Below are positions 1 through 38,844 of a stretch of DNA of 64,000 bases, in pieces. The DNA comes from Eledone cirrhosa (lineage: Eukaryota), in the NCBI GenBank assembly GCA_964016885.1, contig OZ024757.1, positions 42,718,001 to 42,782,000 on the forward strand. The letters are read 5' to 3'. A program made the translations under genes and the position numbers. The notes beneath the pieces were generated by a model. It was given only the letters and a program-made list of their open reading frames with translations, was not told the DNA's origin and ran no database searches. The stretch's first letter is position 1, and each line of letters opens with the position of its first letter.

Positions 1-487
1 AGTGCGCATGCGCCAGAGACGCCGAACCGTACTGCGCATGCGCAAGGTCGCCGGACCATACTGCGCATGCGCCAAGGCCGCCAGACTGTACTGCGCATGC
101 GTCAAAGTCGCAGTACCGAACTGCGCATGCGCCAAAGACGCCGAACCGTCGTGCCATTGCGCCAAGACCGCCGAAACGTACTGCACACGCGCCGAGGCGG
201 CCGGATCGTACTGCGCATGCCCCAAGGCCGCCGGACCGTAGTGCGCATGCGTCAAGGCCGCCAGACCGTAGTGCGCATGCGCCAAGGCCGCCGAAGCGTA
301 CTGCGCATGCGCCAAGGCCGCCGACCCTTAGTGCGCATGCGCCAAGGCCGCCGACCATTAGTGCGCATGCGCCAAAACCGCTGGACCGTAGTGCGCATGC
401 GCCCAGACAACCGGATCGTACTGCGCATGCGCCAAGGCCGCCGTCGTAGTGCGCATGCACCAAGGCCGCCGCACCTTTGTGCGCATG

Positions 488-597
488 CGGTTCGGCGGCC
501 TGGCGCATGCGCACTACGGTTCGGCGGCTTTGACGCATGCGCACTACGTTCCAGCAGCCTTGGCGCACGCGCACTACGGTCCGGCGGTCTTGGCGCA
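488..597 (-). repeat. Short inverted patch (~4 monomers) of the 30-bp satellite
   Basis: Reads CGGTTCGGCGGCC...GCACTACGGT... (reverse-complement monomers) and reverts to forward at the GCGCATGCGC centre 597/598. Confidence 0.93.
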
Positions 598-3500
598 TGC
601 GCCAAGACCGCCGGACCATACTGCGCATGCGCCGTGGGCGCCGGACCGTAGTGCGCATGCGCCAAGGCCGCCGGACCGTAGTGCGCATGCGCCAAGGCCG
701 CCGGACCGTAGTGCGCATGCGCCAAGGCCGACTGACTACTGCGCATGTCATCGTCGCAGTACCGAACTGCGCATGCTCCAAGTAGTGCGCATGCTCCAAG
801 ACCGCCGGATCTTACTGCGCAGGCCCCAAGGTCGTCGGACCGTTGTGCGCATGCGCCAAAGCCGCCAACCCGTAGTGCACATGCGCCAAGACCGCCGGAC
901 CATACTGCGCATGCGCCAAGGCCGCCGGAGCGTAGTGCTCATGCGTCAAGGCCGCCTGACTGTACTGCGCATGCGTCAAGGTCGCAGTACCGAACTGCGC
1001 ATGCGCCAAATTCGCCGGACCGCAATGCGCATGCGCCAAATTCGCCGGACCGCAGTGCGCATGCGCCAAATTCGCCGGACCGCAGTGCGCATGCGCCAAA
1101 GCCGCCGGACCGCAGTGCGCATGCGCCAAAGCCGCTGGACCGTACTGCGCATGCGCCAAGGCCGCCGGACCGTAGGGCACATGCGCCAAAGACGCCGAAC
1201 CGTCGTGCCCATGCGCCAAGACCGCCAGCTTGTACTGCGTATGCCCCAAGGCCGCCGCACCGTAGTGCGCATGCGACAAGGCCGCAGTACCGTAGTGCGC
1301 ATGCGCCAAGGCCACCGGACCGTAGTACGCATGAGCCAAGGCCGCCGGACCGTAGTGCGCATGCGCCAAAGACGCCGAACCGTCGTGCCCATTCGCCAAG
1401 AACGCCGGACCGTACTGCGCATGCGCCAAGGCCGCCGAACCGTACTGCGCATGCGCCAAAGCCGCCTACCCGTGGTGCGCATGCGCCAAAGCAGCCGGAC
1501 CGTAGTGCGCATGCGCCAAGGCCACCGGACCGTACTGCGCATGCTCCAAGACCGCCGGATCGTACTGCGCCTGCCCCAAGGCCATCGGACCGTAGTGCGC
1601 ATGTGCCAAGGCCGCCAGACCGTAGAGCGCATGCGCCAAGACCGCCGAACCGTACTGCGCATGCGCCAAGGCCGCCGAACCGTACTGGCATGCGCCAAAG
1701 CCGCCAAACCGTAGAGCGCATGCGCCAAAGCCGCTGGACCGTAGTGCGCATGCGCCAAGGCCGCATGACCGTAGTGCGCATGCGCCAAAGCCGCTGGACC
1801 GTAGTGCGCATGCGACAAGGCCGCAGTACCGTAGTGCGCATGCGCCAAGTCCATCGGACCGTAGTGCGCATGAACCAAGGCCGCCGGACCGTAGTGCGCA
1901 TGCGCCAAGGCCACCGGACCGTACTGCGCATGCGCCAAGGCCGCCGGACCGTAGTTCGCATGCGCCAGAGCCGCAGAACCGTAGTGCACATGCGCCAAGC
2001 CCGCCGGACCGTAGTTCGCATGCGCCAGAGCCGCAGAACCGTAGTGCGCATGCGCCAAGGCCGCCAGTCCGTAGTGCGCATGCGCCAGAGCCGCCGAACC
2101 GTGGTGCGCATGTGCCAAGGCCGCCGGACCATACTGCGCATGCGCCAAGGCCGCCGGACCGTAGTGCGCATGCGCCAAGGCCGCCGGACCGTAGTGCGCA
2201 TGCGCCAAGCCCGCTGGACCGTAGTGCGCATGCGCCAAGGCCGCCTGACTGTACTGCGCATGCGTCAAAGTCGCAGTACCGAACTGCGCATGCGGTAAGG
2301 CCGCCGGACCGTACTGCACATGCGCCAAGTTCGCCGGACCTTAGTGCGCATGCGCCAAAGACGCCGAACCGTCGTGCCCATGCGCCAAGACAACCGGACC
2401 GTACTGCGCATGCGCCAAGGCCGCCGAACCGTACTGCGCATGCGCCAAAGCCGCCGACGCGTAGTGCGCATGCGCCAAAGCCGCCGACGCGTAGTGCGCA
2501 TGCGCCAAAGCAGCCGGACCGTAGTGCGCATGCGCCAAGGCCACCGGACCGTACTGCGCCTGCCCCAAGGCCATCGGACCATAGTGCGCATGTGCCAAGG
2601 CCGCCAGACCGTAGTGCGCATGCTCCAAGACCGCCGGATCTTACTGCGCATGCCCCAAGGCCGTCGGAGCGTAGTGCGCATATGCCAAGCCGCCCGACCG
2701 TAGTGCGCATGCGCCAAGGCCGCCGGACCGTAGTGCGCATGCGCCAAGGCCACCTAACTACTGCGCATGCGTCGAGGTCGCAATACCGAACTGCGCATGC
2801 GCTAAGGCCGCCGGACCGTACTGCGCATGCGCCAAGGCCGCCGGACCGTAGTGCGCATGCGTCAAGGCCGCCGGACCATACTGTGCATGCGCCGCGGCCG
2901 CCGAACGGTAGTGCGCATGCGCCAAGGCCGCCTGGTTGTACTGCGCATGCGCCAAGGCCGCCGGACCGTAGTGCGAATGGACCAAGGCGGCCTGACTGTA
3001 CTGCGCATGCGTCAAGGCCGCAGTACCGAACTGCGTATGGGCTAAGGCCGCCACCGTACTGCGCATGCGCCAAGGCCGCCGGACCGTACTGCGCATGCGC
3101 CAAGGCCGCCGGACCATACTGCGCATGCGCCAAGGCCGCCGGACCGTAGTGCTCGTGCGCCAAGGCCGCCTAACTGTACTGCGCATGCGTCAAGGTTGCA
3201 GTACAGAACTGCGCATGCGCTAACGCCGTCGGACCGTACTGCGCATGCGCTAACGCCGTCGGACCGTAGTGCGCATGCGCCAAACCCGCCGAACCGTAGT
3301 GCGCATGCGCCAAGGCCGCCTGACTGTACTGCGCATGAGTCAAGGTCGCAGTACCGGACTGCGCATGCGCTAAGGCAGTCGGACCGTAGTGCGCATGCGC
3401 CAAAGCCGCCGGACCATACTGCGCATGCGCCAAGGCCGCCGGACCGTAGTGCGCATGCGCCAAGGCCGCCTGACTGTACTGCGCATGCGTCAAGGCCGCA

Positions 3501-4348
3501 GTACCGAACTGCTCATGCGCTAAGGCCGCCGGACCGTAGTGCGCATGCTCCAAGACCGCCGGATCTTACTGCGCATGCCCCAAGGCCGTCGGACCGTAGT
3601 GCGCAAGTGCCAAGGCCGCCAGACCGTAGTGCGCAAGTGCCAAGGCCGCCAGACCGTAGTGCGCATGCGCCAAGACCGCCGAACCGTACTGCGCATGCGC
3701 CAAGGCCGCCGAACCGTACTGCGCATGCGCCAAAGCCGCCGAACCGTAGAGCGCATGCGCCAAAGCCGCTGGACCGTAGTGCGCATGCGCCAAGTCCGCA
3801 TGACCGTAGTGCGTCAAGGCCGCCCAACCGTAGTGCGCATGGGCCAAAGCCGCCCGACCGTACTGCGCATGCTACAAGCCGCAGTACCGTACTGCGCATG
3901 CGACAAGTCCGCAGTACCGTAGTGCGCATGCGCCAATGCCACCGGACCGTTGTGCGCATGAGCCAAGGCCGCCGGACCGTACTGCGCATGCGCCAAGGCC
4001 GCCGGACCGTAGTTCGCATGCGCCAGAGCCGCCGAACCGTAGTGCACATGCGCCAAGCCCGCCGGACCGTAGTTCGCATGCGCCAGAGCCGCAGAACCGT
4101 AGTGCGCATGCGCAAGAGCCGCCGAACCGTGGTGCGCATGTGCCAAGGCTGCCGGACCATACTGCGCATGCGCCAAGGCCGCCGGACCATACTGCGCATG
4201 CGCCAAGGCCGCCGACCCTTAGTGCGCATGCGCCAAAACCGCTGGACCGTAGTGCGCATGCGCCCAGACCATCGGATCGTACTGCGCATGCGCCAAGGCC
4301 GCCGTCGTAGTGCGCATGCACCAAGGCCGCCGCACCTTTGTGCGCATG

Positions 4349-4458
4349 CGGTTCGGCGGCCTGGCGCATGCGCACTACGGTTCGGCGGCTTTGACGCATG
4401 CGCACTACGTTCCAGCAGCCTTGGCGCACGCGCACTACGGTCCGGCGGTCTTGGCGCA
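4349..4458 (-). repeat. Second copy of the short inverted patch
   Basis: Same sequence as 488-597 at offset 3,861 (ORF starts 449 vs 4310 give the same offset). Confidence 0.93.
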
Positions 4459-4761
4459 TGCGCCAAGGCCGCCGGACCGTAGTGCGCATGCGCCGTGGGC
4501 GCCGGACCGTAGTGCGCATGCGCCAAGGCCGCCTGACTGTACTGCGCATGCGCCAAGGTCGCCGGACCGTACTGCGCATGCGCCAAGGCCGCCGGACCGT
4601 AGTGCGCATGCGCCAAAGCCGCCGAAGCGTACTGCGCATGCGCCAAGGCCGCAGGACCGTACTGCGCATGCGCCAAGGCCACCGGACCGCAGTGCGCATG
4701 CGCCAGAGCCGCCGAGCCGTAGTGCGCATGCGCCAAGTTCGCCGGACCATACTGCGCATGC

Positions 4762-7700: not shown

Positions 7701-10700
7701 CCGTACTGCGCATGCTCCAAGACCGCCGGATCGTACTGCGCCTGCCCCAAGGCCATCGGACCATAGTGCGCATGTGCCAAGGCCGCCAGACCGTAGTGCG
7801 CATGCTCCAAGACCGCCGAACCGTAGTGCGCATGCGCCATGACCGCCGAACCGTACTGCGCATGCGCCAAGGCCGCCGGACCGTAGGGCACATGCGCCAA
7901 AGACGCCGAACCGTCGTGCCCATGCGCCAAGACCGCCAGATCGTACTGCGCATGCCCCAAGGCCGCCGCACCGTAGTGCGCATGCGACAAGGCCGCAGTA
8001 CCGTAGTGCGCATGCGCCAAGACCGCTGGACCATACTGCGCATGCGCCGTGGGCGCTGACCGTAGTGCGCATGCGCCAAGGCCGCCGGACCGTAGTGCGC
8101 ATGCGCCAAGGCCGCCGGACCGTAGTGCGCATGCGCTAAGGCCGCCGGACCGTAGTGCGCATGCGCCAAGGCCGACTGACTACTGCGCATGTCATCGTCG
8201 CAGTACCGAACTGCGCATGCAGTAAGGCCGCCGGACCGTACTGCGCATGCGCCAAGGCCGCTTGACTGTACTGCGCATGCGTCAAGGTCGCCGGACCGTA
8301 CTGCGCATGCGCCAAGGCCGCCGGACCGTACTGCGCATGCGCCAAGGCCGCCGGACCGTAGTGCGCATGCGCCGAAGCGTACTGCGCATGCGTCAAGGCC
8401 GCCGGACCGTACTGCGCATGCGTCAAGGTCCCAGTACCGAACTGCGCATGCGCCAAGGCCGCAGGACCGTACTGCGCATGCGCCAAGGCCACCGGACCGT
8501 GGTGCGCATGTGCCAAGGCTGCCGGACCATACTGCGCATGCGCCAAGGCCGCCGGACCATACTGCGCATGCGCCAAGGCCGCCGGACCATACTGCGCATG
8601 CGCCAAGGCCGCCGGACCGTAGTGCGCATGCGCCAAGGCCGCCAGACCGTAGTGCGCATGCGCCAAGGCCGCCGAACCGTACTGCGCATGCGCCAAGGCC
8701 GCCGACCCTTAGTGCACATGCGCCAAAACCGCCGGATCTTACTGCGCAGGCCCCAAGGTCGTCGGACCGTTGTGCGCATGCGCCAAAGCCGCCGACCCGT
8801 AGTGCACATGCGCCAAGACCGCCGGACCATACTGCGCATGCGCCAAGGCCGCCGGAGCGTAGTGCTCATGCGTCAAGGCCGCCTGACTGTACTGCGCATG
8901 CGTCAAGGTCGCAGTACCTAACTGCGCATGCGCCAAATTCGCCGGACCGCAATGCGCATGCGCCAAATTCGCCGGACCGCAGTGCGCATGCGCCAAATTC
9001 GCCGGACCGCAGTGCGCATGCGCCAAAGCCGCCGGACCGCAGTGCGCATGCGCCAAAGCCGCCGGACCGCAGTGCGCATGCGCCAAAGCCGCTGGACCGT
9101 ACTGCGAATGCGCCAAGGCCGCCGGACCGTAGGGCACATGCGCCAAAGACGCCGAACCGTCGTGCCCATGCGCCAAGACCGCCAGCTTGTACTACGCATG
9201 CCCCAAGGCCGCCGCACCGTAGTGCGCATGCGACAAGGCCGCAGTACCGTAGTGCGCATGCGCCAAGGCCACCGGACCGTAGTGCGCATGAGCCAAGGCC
9301 GCCGGACCGTAGTGCGCATGCGCCAAAGACGCCGAACCGTCGTGCCCATTCGCCAAGAACGCCGGACCGTACTGCGCATGCGCCAAGGCCGCCGAACCGT
9401 ACTGCGCATGCGCCAAAGCCGCCGACCCGTGGTGCGCATGCGCCAAAGCAGCCGGACCGTAGTGCGCATGCGCCAAGGCCACCGGACCGTACTGCGCATG
9501 CTCCAAGACCGCCGGATCGTACTGCGCCTGCCCCAAGGCCATCGGACCGTAGTGCGCATGTGCCAAGGCCGCCAGACCGTAGTGCGCATGCTCCAAGACC
9601 GCCGGATCTTACTGCGCATGCCCCAAGACCGTCGGACCGTAGTGCGCATGTGCCAAGGTCGCCAGACCGTAGTGCGCATGCGCCAAGGTCGCCAGACCGT
9701 AGAGCGCATGCGCCAAGACCGCCGAACCGTACTGCGCATGCGCCAAGGCCGCCGATCCGTACTGGCATGCGCCAAAGCCGCCGAACCGTAGAGCGCATGC
9801 GCCAAAGCCGCTGGACCGTAGTGCGCATGCGCCAAGGCCGCATGACCGTAGTGCGCATGCGCCAAAGCCGCTGGACCGTAGTGCGCATGCGACAAGGCCG
9901 CAGTACCGTAGTGCGCATGCGCCAAGTCCATCGGACCGTAGTGCGCATGAACCAAGGCCGCCGGACCGTAGTGCGCATGCGCCAAGGCCACCGGACCGTA
10001 CTGCGCATGCGCCAAGGCCGCCGGACCGTAGTTCGCATGCGCCAGAGCCGCAGAACCGTAGTGCACATGCGCCAAGCCCGCCGGACCGTAGTTCGCATGC
10101 GCCAGAGCCGCAGAACCGTAGTGCGCATGCGCCAAGGCCGCCGGACCGTAGTGCGCATGCGCCAGAGCCGCCGAACCGTGGTGCGCATGTGCCAAGGCCG
10201 CCGGACCATACTGCGCATGCGCCAAGGCCGCCGGACCGTAGTGCGCATGCGCCAAGGCCGCCGGACCGCAGTGCGCATGCGCCAAGGCCGCCTAACTGTA
10301 CTGCGCATGCGTCAAGGTCGCAGTACCGAACTGCGCATGCGCTAAGGCCGCCGGACCGTACTGCGCATGCGCCAAGGCCGCCTGGTTGTACTGCGCATGC
10401 CCCAAGGCCGCCCGACCGTAGTGCGCATGCGCCAAGGCCGCCTGACTGTACTGCGCATGAGTCAAGGTCGCAGTACCGAACTGCGCATGCGCCAAGGCAG
10501 CCGGACCGTAGTGCGCATGCGCCAAAGCCGCAGAACCGTAGTGCCCATGCGCCAAGCCCGCCGGACCGTAGTGCGCATGCTCCAAGACCGCCGGATCTTA
10601 CTGCGCATGCCCCAAGGCCGTCGGACCGTAGTGCGCAAGTGCCAAGGTCGCCAGACCGTAGTGCGCATGCGCCAAGACCGCCGAACCGTACTGCGCATGC

Positions 10701-17150: not shown

Positions 17151-19216
17151 CCACCTAACTACTGCGCATGCGTCAAGGTCGCAATACCGAACTGCGCATG
17201 CACTAAGGCCGCCGGACCGTACTGCGCATGCGCCAAGGCCGCCGGACCGTAGTGCGCATGCGCCGAACCGTAGTGCGCATGCGTCAAGGCCGCCGGACCA
17301 TACTGTGCATGCGCGGCGGCCGCCGAACGGTAGTGCGCATGCGCCAAGGCCGCCTGATTGTACTGCGCATGCGCCAAAGTCGCCGGACCGTAGTGCGCAT
17401 GCGCCAAGGCCGCCTGACTGTACTGCGCATGCGTCAAAGCCGCAGTACCGAACTGCGTATGGGCTAAGGCCGCCACCGTACTGCGCATGCGCCAAGGCCG
17501 GCGGACCGTACTGCGCATGCGCCAAGGCCGCCGGACCATACTGCGCATGCGCCAAGGCCGCCGGACCGTAGTGCGCATGCGCCAAGGCCGCCGGACCGTA
17601 GTGCGCATGCGCCAAGGCCGCCGGACCAGACTGCGCATGCGCCAAGGTCGCCTGACTGTACTGCGCATGCGTGAAGACCACAGTACCGAACTGCGCATGC
17701 GCTAAGGCCGCCGGACCGTAGTGCGCATGCGCCAAGGCCGCCTGGTTGTACTGCGCATGCCCCAAGGCCGCCCGACCGTAGTGCGCATGCGTCAAGGCCG
17801 CCGAACCGTAGTGCGCATGCGCCTAAGCCGCCGGACCATACTGCGCATGCGCCAAGGCCGCCGGACCGTAGTGCGCATGCGCCAAGGCCGCCTGACTGTA
17901 CTGCGCATGCGTCAAGGCCGCAGTACCGAACTGCGCATGCGCTAAGGCCGCCGGACCGTAGTGCGCATGCTCCAGGACCGCCGGATATTACTGCGCATGC
18001 CCCAAGGCCGCCAGACCGTAGTGCGCATGCGCCAAGACCGCCGAACCGTACTGCGCATGCGCCAAGGCCGCCGAACCGTAGGGCGCATGCGCCAAAGCCG
18101 CTGGACCGTAGTGCGCATGAGCCAAGGCCGCCGGACCGTACTGCGCATGCGCCAAGGCCGCCGGACCGTAGTTCGCATGCGCCAGAGCCGCCGAACCGTA
18201 GTGCACATGCGCCAAGCCCGCCGGACCGTAGTGTGCATGCGCCAAGCCCGCCGGACCGTAGTGCGCATGCGCCGAGGCCGCCTGACTGTACTGCGCATGC
18301 GTCAAGGTCCCAGTACCGAACTGCGCATGCGCTAAGGCCACCGGACCATACTGCGCATGCGCCAAGGCCGCCGGACCGTAGTGCGCATGCTACAAGGCCG
18401 CAGTACCGTACTGCGCATGCTACAAGGCCGCAGTACCGTACTGCGCATGCGACAAGGCCGCAGTACCGTAGTGCGCATGCGCCAAAGCTGCCGGACCGTA
18501 GTGCGCATGCGCCAAGGCCGCCTGACTGTACTGCGCATGCGCCAAGGCCGCCGGACCGTAGTGCGCATGCGCCAAGGCCACCTAACTACTGCGCATGCGT
18601 CAAGGTCGCAGTACCGAACTGCGCATGCGCTAAGGCCGCCGGACCGTACTGCGCATGCGCCAGGGCCGCCGGACCGCAGTGCGCATGCGCCAAGGCCGCC
18701 GGACGGTAGTGCGCATGCGCCAAGGCCGCCTGACTGTACTGCGCATGCGTCAAGGTCGCAGTACCGAACTGCGCATGCGCTAAGGCCGCCGGACCGTACT
18801 GCGCATGCGCCAAGGCCGCCGGACCGTAGTGCGCATGCGCCAAGGCCGCCGGACCAGACTGCGCATGCTCCAAGGCCGCCGGACCGTACTGCGCATGCCC
18901 CAAGGCCGCCTGGTTGTACTGCGCATGCTCCAGGCCGCCCGACCGTTGTGCGCATGCGCCAAGGCCGCCCGACCGTAGTGCGCATGCGCCAAGGCCGCCT
19001 GACTGTACTGCGCATGCGCCAAGGTCGCTGGACCGTAGTGCGCATGCTCAAAGACCACCGGATCGTAGTGCGCATGCGCCATGGCCGCCGGACCGTACTG
19101 CGCAGGCGCCAAGGCCGCCGAACCGTAGTGCGCATGCGCCAAGGCCGCCGGACCATAGTGCGTATAAGCCAAGGCCGTCGGACCGTAGTGCGCATGCGCC
19201 AAGGCCAGCTGACCGT

Positions 19217-19822
19217 CATTTGTCATTTTAGTCGTTTTAGAGTCATTTTAATCATTTATGATGCTGTTGTAGCCTTTCTAGAGTTATTTTAGTAATTTAT
19301 GATTCACTTTAACCCTTTTAGAGCCATTTATAGTCATTTTAGACGTTTCAGTCGTGTTAGAGTCATTCTAGTCAATTATGATACGGTTTTAGCATTTTAG
19401 TCATTGATGATGACGTTTTAGTCATTTATGATGCAGTTTCAGCCATTCTGTTGTAATATGGCAACATAAATGATTAAATGGCTCTAAAATGGCTAAAACA
19501 GCATCATATTTGACAAAAATGACTCGTAAATGAGTAAAACGGTATCATAAATGACTAAAATAACTCTAGAAAGGCTACTACAGCATCATAAATGATTAAA
19601 ATGACTCTAAAACGACTAAAACGTCTAAAATGACAAAAATGGCTTTAATATAGCTTAAACTGCATCATAAATGACTCAAACGATTAAAATGACTCCGAAA
19701 TGGCTAAAAATGACATCATAAATGGCTAAAATGACACTAAAGTGGCTAAAACGGACTGTTAAATTGCTAAATTGTCTCTAAAATGGCTAAAACGTCTTCA
19801 TAAATAAATAAAATGGCTAAAA
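19217..19822. repeat. AT-rich island 1 (606 bp): atypical left end, no inverted 30-mer arm
   Basis: T-tract-rich left half and A-tract-rich right half of a degenerate 41-bp repeat; matches the other islands from ~19315 onward. Confidence 0.95.
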
Positions 19823-22800
19823 CGTGGGTGCCGGACCGTAGTGCGCATGCGCCAAGGCCGCCGGACCGTAATGCGCATGCGCCAAGGCCGCCGGACCGTA
19901 GTGCGCATGCGCCAAGGCCGACTGACTGTACTGCGTATGTGTCATCGTCGCAGTACCGAACTGCGCATGCGCCAAGGCCGCCGGACCGTACTGCGCATGC
20001 GCCAAGGCCGCCGGACCGTAGTGCGCATGCGCCAAGGCCGCCGGACCGTAGTGCGCATGCACCAAGGCGGCCTGACTGTACTGCGCATGCATCAAGGTCC
20101 CAGTACCGTACTGCGCATGCGCAAAGGCCGCCGGACCGTAGTGCGCATGCGCCAAGGCCGCCGGACCGTAGTGCGCATGCGCCAAGGCCGCCGGACCATA
20201 CTGCGCATGCGCCAAGGCGGCCTGACTGTACTGCACATGCGTCAAGTTCGCAGTACCGAACTGCGCATGCGCTAAGGCCGCCGGACCGTACTGCGCATGC
20301 GCCAAGGGCGCCGGACCATAGGGCGCATGCGCCAAAGCCGCCGAACCGTAGTGCGCATGCGCCCCGGCCGCCGGACCGTACTGCGCATGCGCCAGAGCCG
20401 CCGAACCGTACTGCGCATGCGCCAAGGTCGCCGGACCATGCTGTGCATGCGCCAAGGCCGCCGGACCGTAGTGCTCATGCGCCAAGGCCGCCAGACCGTA
20501 GTGCGCATGCGCCAAGGCCGCCGAATCGTACTGCGCGTGCGCCAAGGCCGCCGAACCGCACTGCGCATGCGCCAAGGCCGCCGACCCTTAGTGCGCATGC
20601 GCCAAGGCCGCCGGACCGTACTGCGCATGCGCCAAGGCCGCCGGACCGTAGTGCGCATGCGCCAAGGCCGCCGGACCATACTGCGCATGCCCCAAGGCCG
20701 CCGGACCATAGTGCGCATGCGCCAAGGCCGCCTAACTGTACTGCGCATGCGTCAAGGTCGCAGTACCAAACTGCGCATGCGCCAAGGCCGCCGGACCGTA
20801 GTGCGCATGCGCCAAAGCCGCCGAACCGTAGTGCGCATGCGCAAAGGCCGCCGGACCAAACTGCGCATGCGCCAAGGCCGCCCACCGTAGTGCGCATGCG
20901 CTAAGGCCGCCTGACTGTACTGCGCATGCGTCAGACCACAGTACCGAGCTGCGCATGCGCTAAGGCCGCCGGACCGTAGTGCGCATGCGCCAAGGCCGCC
21001 GGACCAGACTGCGCATGCGCCGCTGTCGCTGGACCGTAGTGCGCATGCGCCAAGGCCGCCTGACTGTACTGCGCATGAGTCAAGGTCGCAGTACCGAACT
21101 GCGCATGCGCTAAGGCCGCCGGACCGTACTGCGCATGCGCCAAGGCAGCCGGACCGTAGTGCGCATGCGCCAAAGACGCCGAACCGTAGTGCGCATGCGC
21201 CCAAGCCGCCGGACCATACTGCGCATGCACCAAGGCCGCCGGACCGTACTGCGCATGCGCCAAGGCCGCCGAACCGTACTGCGCATGCGCCAAAGCCGCC
21301 GAACCGTAGTGCGCATGCGCCAAAGCCGCTGGACCGTAGTGCGCATGCGCCAAGGCCGCCGGACCGTAGTGCGCATGCGCCAAGGCCGCCGGACCATACT
21401 GCGCATGCGCCAAGGCCGCCGGACCGTAGTGCGCATGCGCCAAGGCCGCCGGACCGTAGTGCGCATGCGCCAAGGCCGGCGGACCAGACTGCGCATGCGC
21501 CAAGGCCGCCTGACTGTACTGCGCATGCGTGAATACCACAGTACCGAACTGCGCATGCGCTAAGGCCGCCGGACCTTAGTGCGCATGCGCCAAGGCCGCC
21601 TGGTTGTACTGCGCATGCCCCAAGGCCGCCCGACCGTAGTGCGCATGCGTCAAGGCCGCCGAACCGTAGTGCGCATGCGCCAAGGCCGCCGGACCGTAGT
21701 GCGCATGCGCCAAGGCCGCCTGACTGTACTGCGCATGCGTAACTGCGCATGCGCTAAGGCCGCCGGACCGTAGTGCGCATGCTCCAGGACCGCCGGATAT
21801 TACTGCGCATGCCCCAAGGCCGTCGGATCGTAGTGCGCAAGTGCCAAGGCCGCCAGACCGTAGTGCGCATGCGCCAAGACCGCCGAACCGTACTGCGCAT
21901 GCGCCAAGGCCGCCGAACCGTACTGCGCATGCGCCAAAGCCGCCGAACCGTAGAGCGCATGCGCCAAAGCCGCTGGACCGTAGTGCGCATGCGCCAAGGC
22001 CGCATGACCGTAGTGCGTCAAGGCCGCCCAACCGTAGTGCGCATGGGCGAAAGCCGCCCGACCGTACTGCGCATGCGCCAAGGCCGCAGTACCGTAGTGC
22101 GCATGCTACAAGCCGCAGTACCGTATTGCGCATGCGACAAGGCCGCAGTACCGTAGTGCGCATGCTACAAGCCGCAGTACCGTATTGCGCATGCGACAAG
22201 GCCGCAGTACCGTAGTGCGCATGCGCCAAGGCCACCGGACCGTAGTGCGCATGAGCCAAGGCCGCCGGACCGTACTGCGCATGCGCCAAGGCCGCCGGAC
22301 CGTAGTTCGCATGCGCCAGAGCCGCCGAACCGTAGTGCACATGCGCCAAGCCCGCCGGACCGTAGTGCGTATGCGCCAAGCTCGCCGGACCGTAGTGCGC
22401 ATGCGCCAAGGCCGCCTGACTGTACTGCGCATGCGTCAAGGTCCCAGTACCGAACTGCGCATGCGCTAAGGCCACCGGACCGTACTGCGCATGCGCCAAG
22501 GCCGCCGGACCGTAGTGCGCATGCTACAAGGCCGCAGTACCGTACTGCGCATGCTACAAGGCCGCAGTACCGTACTGCGCATGCGACAAGGCCGCAGTAC
22601 CGTAGTGCGCATGCGGCAAAGCCGCCGGACCGTAGTGCGCATGCGCCAAGGCCGCCTGACTGTACTGCGCATGCGCCAAGGCCGCCGGACCGTAGTGCGC
22701 ATGCGCCAAGGCCACCTAACTACTGCACATGCGTCAAGGTCGCAGTACCGAACTGCGCATGCGCTAAGGCCGCCGGACCGTACTGCGCATGCGCCAGGGC

Positions 22801-24017
22801 CGCCGGACCGCAGTGCGCATGCGCCAAAGCCGCCGAACCGTAGTGCGCATGCGCCAAGGCCGCCGGACCATACTGCGCTTGCGCCGCGGCGGCCGGACCG
22901 TAGTGCGCATGCGCCAAGGCCGCCGGACGGTAGTGCGCATGCGCCAAGGCCGCCTGACTGTACTGCGCATGCGTCAAGGCCGCAGTACCGAACTGCGTAT
23001 GGGCTAAGGCCGCCGGACCGTAGTGCGCATGCGCCAAGGCCGCCGGACAGTAGTGCGCATGCGCCAAGGCCGCCTAACTACTGCGCATGCGTCAAGGTCG
23101 CAGTACCGAACTGCGCATGCGCCAAGGCCGCCGGACCGTTGTGCGCATGCGCCAAGGCCGCTGGACCAGACTGCGCATGCTCCAAGGCCGCCGGACCGTA
23201 CTGCGCATGAGTCAAGGTCGCAGTACCGAACTGCGCATGCGCTAAGGTTGCCGGACCGTACTCCGCATGCGCCAAGGCAGCCGGACCGTAGTGCGCATGC
23301 GCCAAAGCCGCCGAACCGTAGTGCACATGCGCCCAAGCCGCCGGACCATACTGCGTATGCGCCAAGGCCGCCGGACCGTAGTGTGCATGCGCCCAGGCCG
23401 CCTGACTGTACTGCGCATGCGCCCAGGCCGCCGGACCGTACTGCGCATGCGCCAAGGCCGCCGGACCGTACTGCGCATGCGCCAAGGCCGCCGGACCGTA
23501 CTGCGCATGCGCCAAGGCCGCGGGACCGTACTGCGCATGCGCCAAGGCCGCGGGACCGTACTGCGCATGCGCCAAGGCCGCCGGACCGTAGTGCGCATGC
23601 GCCAAGGCCGCCGGACCGTACTGCGCATGCGCCAAGGCCGCTGAACCGTACTGCGCATGCGCCAAGGCCGCTGAACCGTACTGCGCATGCCCCAAGGCCG
23701 TCGGACCGTAGTCCGCATGTGCCAAGGCCGCCAGACCGTAGTGCGCATGCGCCAAGGCCGCCGAACCGTACTGCGCATGAGCCAAGGCCGCCGAACCGTA
23801 CTGCGCATGAGCCAAGGCCGCCGAACCGTACTGCGCATGCGCCAAGGCCGCCGAACCGTACTGCGCATGCGCCAAAGCCGCCGGACCGTAGTGCGCATGC
23901 GCCAAAGCCGCTGGACCGTAGTGCGCATGCGCCAAGGCCACTGGACCGTACTGCGCATGTGCCAAGGCCGCTGCGGTAGTGCGCATGCGCCAAGGCCGCC
24001 GGACCTTTGTGCGCGTG

Positions 24018-24984
24018 CGGTTCGGCGGCCTTGGCGCATGCGCACTACGGTTCGGCGGCTTTGACGCACACGCACTACGTTCCGGCAGATTTGGCGCACG
24101 CACACTACGGTCCGGCGGTCTTGGCGCATGCGCACTTCGGTCCGGCGACCTTGCCGCATGCGCACTACGTTCCGGTGGCCTTGGCACATGCGCAGTACGG
24201 TCCGGCGGCTTTTGCGCATGCTCACTACGGTCTGGCAGCCTTGGCGCATGCGCACTACGGTCCAGCGGTCTTGGCGCATGCGCACTACGTTCCGGTGGCC
24301 TTGGCGCATGCGCAGTACGGTCCAGTGGCCTTGGCGCATGCGTAGTAAGGTCCGGCGCCCTTAGCGCATGCGCAGTACGGTCCGGAGCCTTTGCGCATGC
24401 GCACTACTGTCCGGTGGCCTTGGCGCATGCGCACTACGGTCCGACGGCCTTGGCGCATGCGCACTAAGGTCCGGCGGCTTTGGTGCATGCGCACTACGGT
24501 CTGGCATCATTGGCGCATGCGCAGTACGGTCCGGCGGCCTTGGCGCATGCGCACTACGGTCCGGTGGCCTTGGCGCATGCGCACTACGGTCCGGCGGCCT
24601 TGGCGCATGCGCACTAAGGTCCGGCGGCTTTGGTGCATGCGCACTACGGTCTGGCATCATTGGCGCATGCGCACTACGGTCCGGCGGCCTTGGCGCATGC
24701 GCAGTACGGCCCGGCAACCTTGGCGTATGCGCACTACGGTCTGTCGGCCTTGGCGCATGCGCACTACTGTCCGACGGCCTTGGCGCATGCGCAGTACGGT
24801 CCAGCGGCCTTGACGCATGCGCACTACGGTCCGGCGGCCTTGGCGCATGCGCACTACGGTCTGGCAGCCTTGGCGCATGCGCACTACGGTCTGGCAGCCT
24901 TGGCGCATGCGCACTACGGTCCGACGTCCTTGGCGCATGCGTACTACGGTCCGACGTCCTTGGCGCATGTGCAGTACGGTCCGG
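24018..24984 (-). repeat. Inverted 30-mer arm preceding island 2
   Basis: Reverse-complement monomers (TTGGCGCATGCGCACTACGGTCCGGCGGCC) from junction GGACCTTTGTGCGCGTG|CGGTT up to the island. Confidence 0.95.
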
Positions 24985-25556
24985 ATGACTTTTTAGCCAT
25001 TTTAAGCCTTTATGTTGCCATATTTAGCCATTTTTGAGTCATTTTAGTAATTTATGATGCAGTTTTTACCATTTTAGAGCCATTTATAGTCATTTTAGAC
25101 GTTTCAGTCGTGTTAGAGTCATTCTAGTCAATTATGATACGGTTTTAGCATTTTAGTCGTTGATGATGACGTTTTAGTCATTTATGATGCAGTTTCAGCC
25201 ATTCTGTTGTAATATGGCAACATAAATGATTAAATGGCCCTAAAATGGCTAAAACAGCATCATATTTGACAAAAATGACTCGTAAATGAGTAAAACGGTA
25301 TCATAAATGACTAAAATAACTCTAGAAAGGCTACTACAGCATCATAAATGATTAAAATGACTCTAAAACGACTAAAACGTCTAAAATGACAAAAATGGCT
25401 TTAATATAGCTTAAACTGCATCTTAAATGACTAAAACTACTAAAATGACCCCGAAATGGCTAAAATGACACTAAAGTGGCTAAAACGGACTGTTAAATTG
25501 CTAAATTGTCTCTAAAATGGCTAAAACGTCTTCATAAATAAATAAAATGGCTAAAA
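24985..25556. repeat. AT-rich island 2 (572 bp, short type)
   Basis: ATGACTTTTTAGCC...ATGGCTAAAA; internally inverted 41-bp subrepeats. Confidence 0.96.
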
Positions 25557-27910
25557 CGTGGGTGCCGGACCGTAGTGCGCATGCGCCAAGGCCGCCGGAC
25601 CGTAATGCGCATGCGCCAAGGCCGCCGGATCGTAGTGCGCATGCGCCAAGGCCGACTGACTGTACTGCGCATGTGTCATCGTCGCAGTACCGAACTGCGC
25701 ATGCGGTAAGGCCGCCGGACCGTACTGCGCATGCGCCAAGGCCGCCGGACCGTAGTGCGCAGGCGCCAAGGCCGCCGGACCGTAGTGCGCATGCACCAAG
25801 GCCGCCTGAGTGTACTGCGCATGCATCAAGGTCCCAGTACCGTACTGCGCAAAGGCCGCCGGACAGTAGTGCGCATGCGCCAGAGCCGCCGAACCGTAGT
25901 GCGCATGCGCCAAGGCCGCCCGACCGTAGTGCGCATGGGCCAAAGCCGCCCAACCGTACTGCGCATGCGCTAAGTCCGTAGTACCGTACTGCGCATGCTA
26001 CAAGGCCGCAGTACCGTACTGCGCATGCGACAAGGCCGCAGTACCGTAGTGCGCATGCTACAAGCCGCAGTACCGTATTGCGCATGCGACAAGGCCGCAG
26101 TACCGTAGTGCGCATGCGCCAAGGCCACCGGACCGTAGTGCGCATGAGCCAAGGCCGCCGGACCGTACTGCGCATGCGCCAAGGCCGCCGGACCGTAGTT
26201 CGCATGCGCCAGAGCCGCCGAACCGTAGTGCACATGCGCCAAGCCCGCCGGACCGTAGTGCGTATGCGCCAAGCTCGCCGGACCGTAGTGCGCATGCGCC
26301 AAGGCCGCCTGACTGTACTGCGCATGCGTCAAGGTCCCAGTACCGAACTGCGCATGCGCTAAGGCCACCGGACCGTACTGCGCATGCGCCAAGGCCGCCG
26401 GACCGTAGTGCGCATGCTACAAGGCCGCAGTACCGTACTGCGCATGCTACAAGGCCGCAGTACCGTACTGCGCATGCGACAAGGCCGCAGTACCGTAGTG
26501 CGCATGCGGCAAAGCCGCCGGACCGTAGTGCGCATGCGCCAAGGCCGCCTGACTGTACTGCGCATGCGCCAAGGCCGCCGGACCGTAGTGCGCATGCGCC
26601 AAGGCCACCTAACTACTGCACATGCGTCAAGGTCGCAGTACCGAACTGCGCATGCGCTAAGGCCGCCGGACCGTACTGCGCATGCGCCAGGGCCGCCGGA
26701 CCGCAGTGCGCATGCGCCAAAGCCGCCGAACCGTAGTGCGCATGCGCCAAGGCCGCCGGACCATACTGCGCTTGCGCCGCGGCGGCCGGACCGTAGTGCG
26801 CATGCGCCAAGGCCGCCGGACGGTAGTGCGCATGCGCCAAGGCCGCCTGACTGTACTGCGCATGCGTCAAGGCCGCAGTACCGAACTGCGTATGGGCTAA
26901 GGCCGCCGGACCGTAGTGCGCATGCGCCAAGGCCGCCGGACAGTAGTGCGCATGCGCCAAGGCCGCCTAACTACTGCGCATGCGTCAAGGTCGCAGTACC
27001 GAACTGCGCATGCGCCAAGGCCGCCGGACCGTTGTGCGCATGCGCCAAGGCCGCTGGACCAGACTGCGCATGCTCCAAGGCCGCCGGACCGTACTGCGCA
27101 TGAGTCAAGGTCGCAGTACCGAACTGCGCATGCGCTAAGGTTGCCGGACCGTACTCCGCATGCGCCAAGGCAGCCGGACCGTAGTGCGCATGCGCCAAAG
27201 CCGCCGAACCGTAGTGCACATGCGCCCAAGCCGCCGGACCATACTGCGTATGCGCCAAGGCCGCCGGACCGTAGTGTGCATGCGCCCAGGCCGCCTGACT
27301 GTACTGCGCATGCGCCCAGGCCGCCGGACCGTACTGCGCATGCGCCAAGGCCGCCGGACCGTACTGCGCATGCGCCAAGGCCGCCGGACCGTACTGCGCA
27401 TGCGCCAAGGCCGCGGGACCGTACTGCGCATGCGCCAAGGCCGCGGGACCGTACTGCGCATGCGCCAAGGCCGCCGGACCGTAGTGCGCATGCGCCAAGG
27501 CCGCCGGACCGTACTGCGCATGCGCCAAGGCCGCTGAACCGTACTGCGCATGCGCCAAGGCCGCTGAACCGTACTGCGCATGCCCCAAGGCCGTCGGACC
27601 GTAGTCCGCATGTGCCAAGGCCGCCAGACCGTAGTGCGCATGCGCCAAGGCCGCCGAACCGTACTGCGCATGAGCCAAGGCCGCCGAACCGTACTGCGCA
27701 TGAGCCAAGGCCGCCGAACCGTACTGCGCATGCGCCAAGGCCGCCGAACCGTACTGCGCATGCGCCAAAGCCGCCGGACCGTAGTGCGCATGCGCCAAAG
27801 CCGCTGGACCGTAGTGCGCATGCGCCAAGGCCACTGGACCGTACTGCGCATGTGCCAAGGCCGCTGCGGTAGTGCGCATGCGCCAAGGCCGCCGGACCTT
27901 TGTGCGCGTG

Positions 27911-28877
27911 CGGTTCGGCGGCCTTGGCGCATGCGCACTACGGTTCGGCGGCTTTGACGCACACGCACTACGTTCCGGCAGATTTGGCGCACGCACACTA
28001 CGGTCCGGCGGTCTTGGCGCATGCGCACTTCGGTCCGGCGACCTTGCCGCATGCGCACTACGTTCCGGTGGCCTTGGCACATGCGCAGTACGGTCCGGCG
28101 GCTTTTGCGCATGCTCACTACGGTCTGGCAGCCTTGGCGCATGCGCACTACGGTCCAGCGGTCTTGGCGCATGCGCACTACGTTCCGGTGGCCTTGGCGC
28201 ATGCGCAGTACGGTCCAGTGGCCTTGGCGCATGCGTAGTAAGGTCCGGCGCCCTTAGCGCATGCGCAGTACGGTCCGGAGCCTTTGCGCATGCGCACTAC
28301 TGTCCGGTGGCCTTGGCGCATGCGCACTACGGTCCGACGGCCTTGGCGCATGCGCACTAAGGTCCGGCGGCTTTGGTGCATGCGCACTACGGTCTGGCAT
28401 CATTGGCGCATGCGCAGTACGGTCCGGCGGCCTTGGCGCATGCGCACTACGGTCCGGTGGCCTTGGCGCATGCGCACTACGGTCCGGCGGCCTTGGCGCA
28501 TGCGCACTAAGGTCCGGCGGCTTTGGTGCATGCGCACTACGGTCTGGCATCATTGGCGCATGCGCACTACGGTCCGGCGGCCTTGGCGCATGCGCAGTAC
28601 GGCCCGGCAACCTTGGCGTATGCGCACTACGGTCTGTCGGCCTTGGCGCATGCGCACTACTGTCCGACGGCCTTGGCGCATGCGCAGTACGGTCCAGCGG
28701 CCTTGACGCATGCGCACTACGGTCCGGCGGCCTTGGCGCATGCGCACTACGGTCTGGCAGCCTTGGCGCATGCGCACTACGGTCTGGCAGCCTTGGCGCA
28801 TGCGCACTACGGTCCGACGTCCTTGGCGCATGCGTACTACGGTCCGACGTCCTTGGCGCATGTGCAGTACGGTCCGG
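27911..28877 (-). repeat. Inverted 30-mer arm preceding island 3
   Basis: Copy of 24018-24984 at +3,893. Confidence 0.95.
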
Positions 28878-29449
28878 ATGACTTTTTAGCCATTTTAAGC
28901 CTTTATGTTGCCATATTTAGCCATTTTTGAGTCATTTTAGTAATTTATGATGCAGTTTTTACCATTTTAGAGCCATTTATAGTCATTTTAGACGTTTCAG
29001 TCGTGTTAGAGTCATTCTAGTCAATTATGATACGGTTTTAGCATTTTAGTCGTTGATGATGACGTTTTAGTCATTTATGATGCAGTTTCAGCCATTCTGT
29101 TGTAATATGGCAACATAAATGATTAAATGGCCCTAAAATGGCTAAAACAGCATCATATTTGACAAAAATGACTCGTAAATGAGTAAAACGGTATCATAAA
29201 TGACTAAAATAACTCTAGAAAGGCTACTACAGCATCATAAATGATTAAAATGACTCTAAAACGACTAAAACGTCTAAAATGACAAAAATGGCTTTAATAT
29301 AGCTTAAACTGCATCTTAAATGACTAAAACTACTAAAATGACCCCGAAATGGCTAAAATGACACTAAAGTGGCTAAAACGGACTGTTAAATTGCTAAATT
29401 GTCTCTAAAATGGCTAAAACGTCTTCATAAATAAATAAAATGGCTAAAA
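28878..29449. repeat. AT-rich island 3 (572 bp, short type)
   Basis: Appears identical to island 2, including ATGACCCCGAAA. Confidence 0.96.
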
Positions 29450-31709
29450 CGTGGGTGCCGGACCGTAGTGCGCATGCGCCAAGGCCGCCGGACCGTAATG
29501 CGCATGCGCCAAGGCCGCCGGATCGTAGTGCGCATGCGCCAAGGCCGACTGACTGTACTGCGCATGTGTCATCGTCGCAGTACCGAACTGCGCATGCGGT
29601 AAGGCCGCCGGACCGTACTGCGCATGCGCCAAGGCCGCCGGACCGTAGTGCGCAGGCGCCAAGGCCGCCGGACCGTAGTGCGCATGCACCAAGGCCGCCT
29701 GAGTGTACTGCGCATGCATCAAGGTCCCAGTACCGTACTGCGCAAAGGCCGCCGGACAGTAGTGCGCATGCGCCAGAGCCGCCGAACCGTAGTGCGCATG
29801 CGCCAAGGCCGCCCGACCGTAGTGCGCATGGGCCAAAGCCGCCCAACCGTACTGCGCATGCGCTAAGTCCGTAGTACCGTACTGCGCATGCTACAAGGCC
29901 GCAGTACCGTACTGCGCATGCGACAAGGCCGCAGTACCGTAGTGCGCATGCGCCAAGGCCACCGGACCGTAGTGCGCATGAGCCAAGGCCGCCGGACCGT
30001 ACTGCGCATGCGCCAAGCCCGCCGGACCGTAGTGCGCATGCGCCAGAGCCGCCGAACCGTGGTGCACATGCGCCAAGCCCGCCGGACCGTAGTGCGCATG
30101 CGCCAAACCCGCCGGACCGTAGTGCGCATGCGCCAAGGCCGCCTGACTGTACTGCGCATGCGTCAAGGTCCCAGTACCGAACTGCGCATGCGCTAAGGCC
30201 ACCGGACCGTACTGCGCATGCGCCAAGGCCGCCGGACCTTAGTGCGCATGCGCCAGAGCCGCCGAACCGTGGTGTGCATGCGCCAAGGCCGCCGGACCAT
30301 ACTGCGCATGCGCCAAAGCCGCCTGACTGTACTGCGCATGCGCCAAGGCCGCCTGACTGTACTGCGCATGCGCCAAGGCCACCTAAATGTACTGCGCATG
30401 GTCGCAGTACCGAACTGCGCATGCGCCAAGGCCGCCGGACCGTACTGCGAATGCGCCGAGGCCGCCGGACCGTAGTGCGCATGCGCCAAAGCCGCCGAAC
30501 CGTAGTGCGCATGCGCCCAAGCCGCCGGACCATACTGCGCATGCACCAAGGCCGCCGGACCGTAGTGCGCATGCGCCAAGGCCGCCTGACTGTACTGCGC
30601 ATGCGTCAAGGCCCCAGTACCGAACTGCGCATGCGCTAAGGCCGCCGGACCGTAGTGCGCATGCTCCAAAACCGCTGGATCTTACTGCGCATGCCCCAAG
30701 GCCGCCGGACCATACACCGCATGCGCCAAGGCCGCCGGACCATACTCCGCATGCGCCAAGGCCGCCGGACCGTTGTGCGCATGCGCCAAGGCCGCCTGAC
30801 GACTGCGCATGCGTCAAGGTCGCAATACCGAACTGCGCATGCGCTAAGGCCGGCGGACCGTAGTGCGCATTCGCCAAGGCCGCCGGACCGTAGTGCGCAT
30901 TCGCCAAGGCCATCGGACCGTAGTGCGCATGCGCCAAGGCCGCCGGGCCGTAGTGCGCATGCGCCAAGGCCGCCTAACTGTACTGCGCATGCGTCAAGGT
31001 CGCAGTACCGAACTGCGCATGCGCCAAGGCCGCCGGACCGTACTGCGCATGCGCCAAGGCAGCCGGACCGTAGTGCGCATGCGCCCAAGCCGCCGGACCA
31101 TACTGCGCATGCGCCAAGGCCGCCGGACCGTAGTGCGCATGCGTCAAGGCCGCAGTACCGAACTGCGCATGCGCTAAGGCCGCAGTACCGAACTGCGCAT
31201 GCGCCAAGGCCGCCGGACCGTACTGCGCATGCGCCAAGGACGCCGGACCGTAGTGCGCATGCGCCAAAGACGCCGAACAGTCGTGCCCATGCGCCAAGAC
31301 CGCCGGACCGTACTGCGCATGCCCCAAAGCCGCCGACCCGTAGTGCGCATGCACCAAGGCCACCGGACCGTACTGCGCATGCTCTAAGACCGTCGGACCG
31401 TAGTGCGCATGCCCCAAATCCGTCGGACCGTAGTGCGCATGTGCCAAGGCCGCCAGACCGTAGTGCGCATGCGCCAAGGCCGCCGAACCGTACTGCGCAT
31501 GCGCCAAGGCCGCCGAACCGTACTGCGCATGCGCCAAGGCCGCCGAACCGTACTGCGCATGCGCCAAGGCCGCCGAACCGTAGTGCGCATGCGCCAAAGC
31601 CGCTGGACCGTAGTGCGCATGCGCCAAGGCCACTGGACCGTACTGCGCATGTACCAAGGCCGCCGTCGTAGTGCGCATGCGCCAATGCCGCCGGACCTTT
31701 GTGCGCATG

Positions 31710-36000: not shown

Positions 36001-38844
36001 CCAAGGCCGCCGGACCGTAGTGCGCATGCGCCAAGGCCGCCTGACTGTACTGCGCATGCGTCAAGGCCGCAGTACCGAACTGCGCATGCGCCAAGGCCGC
36101 CGGACCGTAGTGCGCATGCGCCAAGGCCGCCGGACCATACTGCGCATGCGCCAAGGCCGCCGGACCGTAGTGCGCATGCGCCAAGGCCGCCTAACTGTAC
36201 TGCGCATGCGTCAAGGTCGCAGTACCGAACTGCGCATGCGCCAAGGCCGCCGGACCGTAGTGCGCATGCGCCAAGGCCGCCGGACCGTAGTGCGCATGCG
36301 CCAAGGCCGCCTGGTTGTACTGCGCATGCGCCAAGGCCGCCGGATCGTAGTGCGCATGCGCCAAGGCCGCCTGACTGTACTGCGCATGCGTCAAGGCCGC
36401 AGTACCGAACTGCGTATGGGCTAAGGCCGCCGGACCGTAATGCGCATGCGCCAAGGCCGCCGGACCGTAGTGCGCATGCGTCAAGGTCGCAGTACCGAAC
36501 TGCGCATGCGCCAAGGCCGCCGGACCTGACTGCGCATGCGCCGCGGCCGCCGAACCGTACTGCGCATGCCCCAAGGCCGCCTGGTTGTACTGCGCATGCC
36601 CCAAGGCCGCCTGGTTGTACTGCGCATGCCCCAAGGCCGCCCGACCGTAGTGCGCATGCGCCAAGGCCGCCCGACCGAGGTGCGCATGAGTCGAGGTCGC
36701 AGTACCGAACTGCGCATGCGCTAAGGCCGCCGGACCGTACTGCGCATGCGCCAAGGCAGCCGGACCGTAGTGCGCATGCGCCCAAGCCGCCGGACCATAC
36801 TGCGCATGCGCCAAGGCCGCCGAACCGTCGTGCCCATGCGCCAAGACCGCCGGACCGTACTGCGCATGCGCCAAGGCCGCTGAACCGTACTGCGCATGCC
36901 CCAAAGCCGCCGACCCGTAGTGCGCATGCACCAAGGCCACTGGACCGTACTGGGCATGCTCTAAGACCGTCGGACCGCAGTGCGCATGCCCCAAGGCCGT
37001 CGGACCGTAGTGCGCATGTGCCAAGGCCGCCGAACCGTACTGCGCATGCGCCAAGGCCGCCGAACCGTACTGCGCATGCGCCAAGGCCGCCGGACCGTAG
37101 TGCGCATGCGCCAAAGACGCCGAACGGTCGTGCCCATGCGCCAAGACCGCCGGACCGTACTGCGCATGCCCCAAAGCCGCCGACACGTAGTGCGCATGCG
37201 CCAAGGCCGCCGGACCGTACTGCACATGCCCCAAGGCCGTCGGACCGTAGTGCGCATGCGCCAAGGCCGCCAGACCGTAGTGCGCATGCGCCAAGGCCGC
37301 CGAACCGTACTGCTCATGCGCCAAGGCCGCCGAACCGTACTGCGCATGCGCCAAGGCCGCCGAACCGTACTGCGCATGCGCCAAGGCCGCCGAACCGTAC
37401 TGCGCATGCGCCAAAGCCGCCGAACCGTAGTGCGCATGCGCCAAAGCCGCTGGACCGTAGTGCGCATGCGCCAAGGCCACTGGACCGTACTGCGCATGTA
37501 CCAAGGCCGCCGTCGTAGTGCGCATGCGCCAAGGCCGCCGGAACTTTGTGCGCATGCGCCAAGGCCGCCGGAACTTTGTGCGCATGCGCCAAGGCCGCCG
37601 GACCGTAGTGCGCATGCGCCAAGGCCGCCGGACCATAGTGCGCATGCGCCAAGGCCGCCGGAGCATACTGCACATGCGCCAAGGCCGCCGGACCGTAGTG
37701 CGCATGCGCCAAGGCCACCGGACCGTAGTGCGCATGAGCCAAGGCCGCCGGACCGTAGTGCGCATGCGCCAGAGCCGCCGAACCGTGGTGCACATGCGCC
37801 AAGCCCGTCGGACCGTAGTGCGCATGCGCCAAGCCCGCCGGACCGTAGTGCGCATGCGCCAAGGCCGCCTGACTGTACTGCGCATGCGTCAAGGTCCCAG
37901 TACCGAACTGCGCATGCGCTAAGGCCACGGGACCGTACTGCGCATGCGCCAAGGCCGCCGGACCGTTGTGCGCATGCGCCAGAGCCGCCGAACCGTGGTG
38001 TGCATGCGCCAAGGCCACCGGACCATACTGCGCATGCGCCAAAGCCGCCTGACTGTACTGCGCATGCGCCAAGGCCGCCTGACTGTACTGCGCATGCGAC
38101 AAGGCCGCCGGACCGTAGTGCGCATGCGCCCAAGCCGCCGGACCATACTGCGCATGCGCCAAGGCCGCCGGACCGTAGTGCGCATGCGTCAAGGCCGCAG
38201 TACCGAACTGCGCATGCGCTAAGGCCGCAGTACCGAACTGCGCATGCGCTAAGGCCGCAGTACCGAACTGCGCATGCGCCAAGGCCGCCGGACCGTACTG
38301 GGCATGAGCCAAGGACGCCGGACCGTAGTGCGCAGGCGCCAAAGACGCCGGACCGTAGTGCGCATGCGCCAAAGACGCCGAACAGTCGTGCCCATGCGCC
38401 AAGACCGCCGGACCGTACTGCGCATGCGCCAAGGCCGCTGAACCGTACTGCGCATGCCCCAAAGCCGCCGACCCGTAGTGCGCATGCACCAAGGCCACCG
38501 GACCGTACTGCGCATGCTCTAAGACCGTCGGACCGTAGTGCGCATGCCCCAAGGCCGTCGGACCGTAGTGCGCATGCGCCAATGCCGCCAGACCGTAGTG
38601 CGCATACGCCAAGGCCGCCGAACCGTACTGCGCATGCGCCAAGGCCGCCGAACCGTACTGCGCATGCGCCAAGGCCGCCGAACCGTACTGCGCATGCGCC
38701 AAGGCCGCCGAACCGTACTGCGCATGCGCCAAAGCCGCTGGACCGTAGTGCGCATGCGCCAAGGCCACTGGACCGTACTGCGCATGTACCAAGGCCGCCG
38801 TCGTAGTGCGCATGCGCCAATGCCGCCGGACCTTTGTGCGCATG

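Follow-up and report, generated by a model that had tools for sequence, protein, structure and literature searches.

Island-free copies of a fold-back cassette in a 30-bp satellite array of Eledone cirrhosa

Macro-dyads, in which a major and a minor satellite are intermingled, have been described in Tribolium (PMC13081366, PMC12581902) and, according to the part of PMC13081366 covered here, are documented only in that genus. The same two papers propose ectopic recombination and circular DNA, and the portions of them considered here show no intermediate (PMC13081366, PMC12581902). The stretch of Eledone cirrhosa DNA analyzed in the present study (64 kb in full, referred to below as the window) resembles the macro-dyads, as those portions describe them, in having two intermingled satellites (30-bp GC and ~41-bp AT repeats), an orientation switch inside both satellites (junction J1 in the GC repeat and a change from T-rich to A-rich sequence near 25210 in the AT repeat), and conserved switch points, the islands here being 98.6 to 100% identical. 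Unlike the ~110-bp element of T. madens, the monomer here is 30 bp long with ~67% GC, and in contrast to the multi-kilobase, near-symmetric subarrays of Tribolium, inverted segments here measure 0.39 to 1.0 kb against forward segments of 0.9 to 5.8 kb. The minor repeat spans only ~0.6 kb, with island arms of ~0.22 and ~0.34 kb, which also differs from Tribolium. An island-free sister form such as the one present in this array was not seen for the Tribolium macro-dyads in the covered text of PMC13081366 and PMC12581902, supplements aside. The cassette was not filed as a Tribolium-type macro-dyad because the multi-kilobase symmetry fails.

The window also contains, at 440-775, an incomplete copy of the cassette that we call ghost 1, which has both cassette flanks and a 112-nt inverted stub and no island. 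It is like the partial transposon copies left by abortive gap repair or interrupted SDSA (PMC3814204) in that it stops where a short direct repeat lies, in this case the monomer's 10-bp core. It is unlike them, as far as the covered part of that paper extends, in that no transposon or excision is shown at this locus and the direct repeat is a palindrome common to both monomer orientations. An inverted repeat spans the inverted-to-forward junction, as it does in the snap-back SD-MMEJ described in the covered text of PMC2943611, where it is primed on a short palindrome; however, a palindrome results from any inverted-to-forward switch at the core, which leaves a single mirrored base as informative. 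Small inverted triplications (DUP/IN/DUP, ODIRA), to judge from the covered portions of PMC13334657 and PMC10766183, share with ghost 1 the forward-inverted-forward order, a short inverted segment (160 nt on average, against 112 nt here), and junctions at short inverted repeats. Hairpin slippage as treated in that portion of PMC13334657 restores the original locus, whereas here the stub remains. We rejected a small inverted triplication because the stub does not copy its neighbors: mismatches number 12 in 90 positions against the downstream flank (9 for the consensus) and 11 in 60 against the upstream flank (6 for the consensus).

The array and its fold-back cassette

The entire window is one tandem array of 2137 copies of the 30-bp monomer, and all monomers of the array are ~90% alike. 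The core, GCGCATGCGC, is a perfect palindrome with 1153 exact copies in the 64 kb. It equals the NRF1 consensus given in the covered part of PMC10810270 and, on sequence identity, is a candidate NRF1 site. The orientation map consists of forward runs and nine long inverted arms, with ten AT-rich islands (all past 19.2 kb) and with inverted calls of 107 nt at both 484-590 and 4345-4451. Islands are missing from the first 17.5 kb, which has zero exact 180-mers in common with the remainder of the window, and 2650 of its own 17321 180-mers are repeated internally; the cut at 17500 was chosen by us rather than mapped. The window reads most readily as two domains that were homogenized separately. 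Near ~17500 the island domain borders an island-free domain with duplications of ~8-9 kb. Tandem duplications are also present at 22127-29951 (3932 nt, 100.0% identity) and at 38002-53002 (7508 nt, 99.9% identity), and these either are very recent or are duplications of the assembly. At 55362-55402, a lone monomer is flipped in register between two palindromic cores.

The full cassette passes from a forward run through J1 to an inverted arm of 757-996 nt, an island of 571-594 nt, and a CGTGGG flank. It is complete in 8 of the 10 island units; of the other two, the 57k unit is without J1 and the 19.2k island is without an inverted arm. The 24k unit serves as the reference:

24005-24985, reverse strand: J1 and a 966-nt inverted arm
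24986-25556, no strand assigned: 571-nt AT-rich island, a ~41-bp repeat that is T-rich and then A-rich, with its axis near 25210
25557-25695, forward strand: CGTGGGT flank

The ~41-bp AT repeat within the islands is diverged, and the nine standard islands are 98.6-100% identical to one another over 36 pairs. J1 is found in the 8 full units, the left island transition in 9 units, and the right transition in 10; the right flank is common to 10 of 10 islands and the left flank to 9. These shared flanks point to a single origin of the islands followed, as the sequences suggest, by tandem spread. A foldback transposon or MITE would be expected at many unrelated sites with a target-site duplication; no such duplication was seen at the islands in the window, and no other clear island flank is named among the read ends listed. 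AAAA stands directly before CGTGGG in 10 of 10 islands. The last 17 nt of the island repeat an earlier 17-mer inside it, and the island's own repeat reads AAAACGT, with T following AAAACG in 5 of 8 occurrences, the last one included. Predicted folding gave −126 kcal/mol for the island and −31.5 for J2, the inverted-to-forward switch of ghost 1, and for J1 the prediction is a fold-back whose loop is short.

The three commonest forward markers are absent from the inverted arms (0 of 237 monomers), against 125, 114, and 75 of 1544 forward monomers. The monomer variants of the arms suggest an older subfamily that may have been shielded from homogenization. Inverted arms (e.g., 24020-24985) are enriched in some CpG-decay variants.

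Partial losses of the cassette are frequent in the array, and at least three of them are derived (the 19.2k island, the 57k arm, and the uninverted J1 flanks). The island at 19212-19822 has no inverted arm, and over its left ~90 nt it repeats its own right arm in reverse almost exactly. Another forward-to-inverted junction, with a few untemplated-looking bases, lies at 56780-56810, and the 57k arm is shortened to ~390 nt. The left flank of J1 occurs without inversion, continuing forward, at 37491-37578, 42527-42584, ~50020-50077, and 63902-63959. These four flanks are likely secondary losses at the core because they have one derived base in common with six full units.

Reads from four of the seven listed runs were mapped to the island only; run X1 contributed a small share and was given no evidential weight. 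The AT repeat forms a larger, diverged multicopy family (runs X1 and X2), and both island transitions are present in other samples. Run X2, which may be the source sample, has a 419-nt contig across 25197-25592, and X5 and X6 span both transitions with reads that begin at fixed cut sites, which biases their depth. An X2 contig with a depth of 434 over 25018-25155 contains two 1-nt gaps; it may be of the 19.2k-island type, which would then be common genome-wide.

Anatomy of the ghosts and their relationship to full units

The features of ghost 1, together with two related copies that also lack the island, are as follows:

422-479, forward strand: pre-junction flank, a 28-nt monomer and a CTTTG monomer, common to full units
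480-495, no strand assigned: J1, the forward-to-inverted junction, identical in 8 full units; out of register, with a 2-nt CG overlap
490-601, reverse strand: inverted stub of 112 nt, equal to the first ~3.7 monomers of the 757-996 nt arm of full units
578-617, no strand assigned: J2, the inverted-to-forward switch on a palindromic core; a 40-bp perfect palindrome
603-632, forward strand: 30 nt absent from every full unit, made up of the rest of a CCATAC-ending monomer and the next core
622-651, forward strand: whole CGTGGG monomer, in register; in full units, the island ends at the CGT of CGTGGG
652-767, forward strand: post-island flank with the markers GCCGACTGAC and TCATCGTCGCAG and two ghost-specific 2-nt deletions
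4283-4512, no strand assigned: ghost 2, with 2 differences from ghost 1 over the 241 nt to J2
8007-8211, forward strand: third island-free copy, the right part of ghost 1 without the inversion, beginning at the J2 monomer

The piece absent from ghost 1 relative to full units is 1.2-1.4 kb long and lopsided, and the counterpart of the ghost's 30 nt measures 1184-1446 nt in the four full units measured. The first CGT after J2 falls exactly at the island's right junction. The palindrome at 578-617 is the only perfect one of 20 bp or more in the window; it and the third copy go beyond what the initial annotation had described.

That annotation had read 440-597 as the junction and first inverted monomers of the cassette and 633-770 as its post-island flank, and both identifications are borne out. 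ACCTTTGTGCG occurs 10 times in the 64 kb, in the 2 ghosts and the 8 full units, and the left-flank motifs GGCTTTGACGCA and GGCGGTCTTGG occur 10 times each on the forward strand at the same places. On the right, CGTGGG occurs 13 times (10 of them directly after an island and the others at 633, 4494, and 8048), and TCATCGTCGCAG occurs 11 times (at 748, at 8192, and in 9 island flanks). When 633-767 was scored against 1462 in-register sites, the copy at 8048 reached 127 and 9 island flanks reached 119-121, compared with a next best score of 111, a 99th percentile of 107, and a median of 75. For 480-597 against 1763 sites, ghost 2 scored 118 and the 24k and 28k units scored 101, the next best being 86. 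The similarity therefore exceeds that between random monomer runs, with cassette flanks ranking top on both sides. The three full inverted monomers taken alone discriminate less (84 for 24k and 28k and 80 for the six remaining full units, with 82 for the best forward run). The unit at 24001, chosen earlier for comparison, does share the flanks, but it has GCTGCGGTAG where six other full units have CCGTCGTAGT. The recurrence placed at ~4300-4510 is a genuine second copy, although only the CGTGGG monomer of its right flank is retained. After J2, ghost 2 continues with a plain monomer, not a CCATAC monomer, while the 8007 copy, like ghost 1, has a CCATAC monomer directly upstream of a CG-type monomer. 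The three island-free copies are nonidentical and have private deletions in common, which argues against an artifact; the mapped reads are those over the island.

Trees of the flank monomers had been proposed for polarizing gain and loss. The left-flank tree separates ghosts from full units (100/99). The right-flank tree joins ghosts and island flanks against a CG family of island-free monomers (100/99) but does not separate ghosts from full units; it holds 14 of 18 rows, with four full units missing and with ghost 2 and the 45473 unit excluded for their diverged flanks. The ghosts keep the consensus base where full units are derived, as in the T after CGTGGG (derived in 10 of 10), GTAA (9 of 10), and six left-side changes (8 of 8). 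Changes private to the ghosts, counted by hand from the alignments, comprise one 1-nt and two 2-nt deletions and three substitutions. Divergence between ghosts and full units is ~3-5%, compared with ~1% among islands, and it is about equal in the left (10 of 181) and right (4 of 135) halves (Fisher P = 0.41, with hand counts of lineage changes as input). Because the full units share derived bases that the ghosts lack and the ghosts have changes of their own, the ghost is a sister lineage to all full units, older than they are and not a recent deletion of any present unit.

Origin of the island-free copies

We consider it somewhat probable that the ghost is the cassette's empty target site, into which a template switch at the core brought a short copied piece of inverted sequence, the stub; the likelihoods attached to this and the other readings reflect our own weighing and were not computed. 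The stub could have been copied from an early full unit, which is a tentative proposal, or, more tentatively again, the stub could have come first and later seeded capture of the island. Since GCGCATGCGC reads identically on both strands, forward and inverted monomers have the core in common as a direct repeat, and J2 lies exactly on a core. Much as happens when gap repair is aborted, a strand growing through J1 along an inverted template would have been released after ~3.7 monomers (112 nt) and would have paired again with the following core of the island-free site. In the long version of this event, which would be the full cassette, copying would have run on through all of the arm and the AT repeat and would have rejoined the site 30 nt beyond, where CGT gives an overlap of 3 nt; ghosts and full units would afterwards have diverged in separately homogenized parts of the array. 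Switches at the core also occur at the flipped monomer at 55362, after the uninverted CTTTG monomers, and in the 8007 copy. No function of the ghost is implied.

The right half of ghost 1 carries most directly the part of the initial annotation that spoke of an empty preinsertion site: the CGTGGG monomer is whole, and its upstream neighbor is that of an island-free family. The left half does not fit an empty site in the simple sense, since J1 and the 112-bp inverted stub are kept. The extra monomer of ghost 1 needs an island-free template because the islands all end in AAAA and CCATAC monomers are absent from the inverted arms (0 of 237). A single deletion of the 24k unit scores −25 versus −10 for the homologous parts alone, with 15 extra differences; on the 38832 unit the scores are −41 versus −43, the extra arm monomer dominating the score. 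An island-free monomer family with CG at the same two positions has 16 copies, and CCATAC stands just upstream in 10 of these, compared with 80 of 1929 segments overall. CG-type monomers, counting those of the ghost type, are most frequent at a distance of three monomers ahead of the TGACTGTAC marker (7 of 88), and ghost 1 and the island flanks show that same spacing. A change from CGCGG to CGTGG is one CpG transition. Against an empty site, T follows CG in 0 of the 16 CG-family copies, and the T, or the whole CGT, of CGTGGG could be an island scar. A near-identical candidate donor of ghost 1's CCATAC monomer is present at 876, and if the plain monomer of ghost 2 is the older state, the arguments from the CG family and CCATAC and from the first CGT weaken. 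A fully empty allele, in which CTTTG is followed directly by the CCATAC and CGTGGG monomers, was not found in the 64-kb window, the four uninverted J1 flanks continue differently from such an allele, and no donor of the stub was found among the forward monomers of the window.

It is possible, though not probable, that the ghost instead arose by templated loss. An early full unit would have broken in its arm or island, and the right end, trimmed to the island edge, would have copied 30 nt in register from another monomer. It would then have been joined, perhaps following snap-back synthesis on the palindrome, to the fourth inverted core of the left end; the CGT would be an island scar. The AAAACGT of the island's own repeat, with the T present at its last occurrence, is consistent with such a scar, and the arm looks like one captured block because the three commonest forward markers are absent from it. 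The last stub monomer has a variant base that reappears in mirror position on the other side of J2 and so yields the 40-bp palindrome, which the account of snap-back in the covered part of PMC2943611 predicts; the mirrored base occurs in 59 of 541 forward monomers of the ghost domain, so that chance alone would provide it in ~11% of cases. In score the stub is close to distal-arm monomers (+4 to +5.6 bits, values that 13-38 of 1541 forward triplets also attain), but this likeness is gone without CpG sites (−2 to +1.2 bits), and the test of order between stub and distal arm is weak (P = 0.05, 0.23, 0.21, and 0.42 in four arms). Templated loss has precedent in the other derived partial losses of the array, at least three in number, ghost 2 is plain after J2, and the monomer at 876 is a possible donor for that of ghost 1. 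For templated loss to hold, however, a third template must be involved, and copying must switch in register at the island edge, where the overlap is 1-2 nt; the reading also leaves the CG-family match and the CCATAC neighbor partly to chance (CCATAC stands four monomers before the marker in 12 of 88 cases).

More doubtful is the proposal that the ghost is a frozen precursor, in which a flip of four monomers created the 40-bp palindrome, which broke and captured the long arm and the AT island. On the same doubtful footing, the window would hold a two-satellite macro-dyad cassette outside Tribolium, with the core acting as an orientation-free hinge.

The initial annotation had offered, as its other explanation, a precise loss of the fold-back core through cruciform or hairpin resolution. 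Such an excision from a full unit of the present day, which would include filled/empty polymorphism or a difference between soma and germ line, is very unlikely. Both flanks are kept, and the island and the junctions are predicted to fold; however, in the 24k unit the gap reaches ~1080 nt leftward from the island axis and only ~340 nt rightward, the forward monomers that would pair with the arm are retained in the ghost, and 30 foreign nt are present. The ghosts also have private changes and lack the derived states common to all full units, and the ghost and island domains have no exact 180-mer in common. A deletion between cores would, we infer, have taken CGTGGG too. A symmetric cruciform or hairpin product is not supported, the loss being off-axis, accompanied by foreign bases, and not derived from an existing filled copy, and there is no sign in the array of programmed or recurrent excision. 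Least likely of all is the reading that the monomers are similar by chance or that long reads or the assembly produced a fold-back artifact: monomers as alike as these, the duplication at 100.0% over 3932 nt elsewhere in the window, and the fact that perfect palindromes can be read artifacts would favor it, but the marker motifs occur only at cassette flanks and ghosts, the three nonidentical copies share private deletions, and the stub is not a mirror of its neighbors.

Implications for satellite arrays

Rfam at gathering scores gave 0 matches in the 64 kb, and the flank motif had 0 matches in metagenome contigs. In the literature searched, supplements aside, no paper was found with TGCGCATGCGC together with "satellite," nor any account of the present 30-bp satellite or of such ghosts.

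Repair or replication errors of familiar kinds account for the ghost, which is for the most part ordinary turnover of a satellite. The two-satellite cassette at 19200-64000 is arguably more interesting than the ghost itself. A sister lineage and several partial forms of a single cassette occur together in this array, and most of the orientation switches fall on one palindromic 10-mer, which makes gain versus loss testable. The array bears on how orientation switches and two-satellite cassettes originate in satellite DNA. If the ghost were indeed a frozen precursor, it would provide a stepwise, testable origin for satellite macro-dyads.
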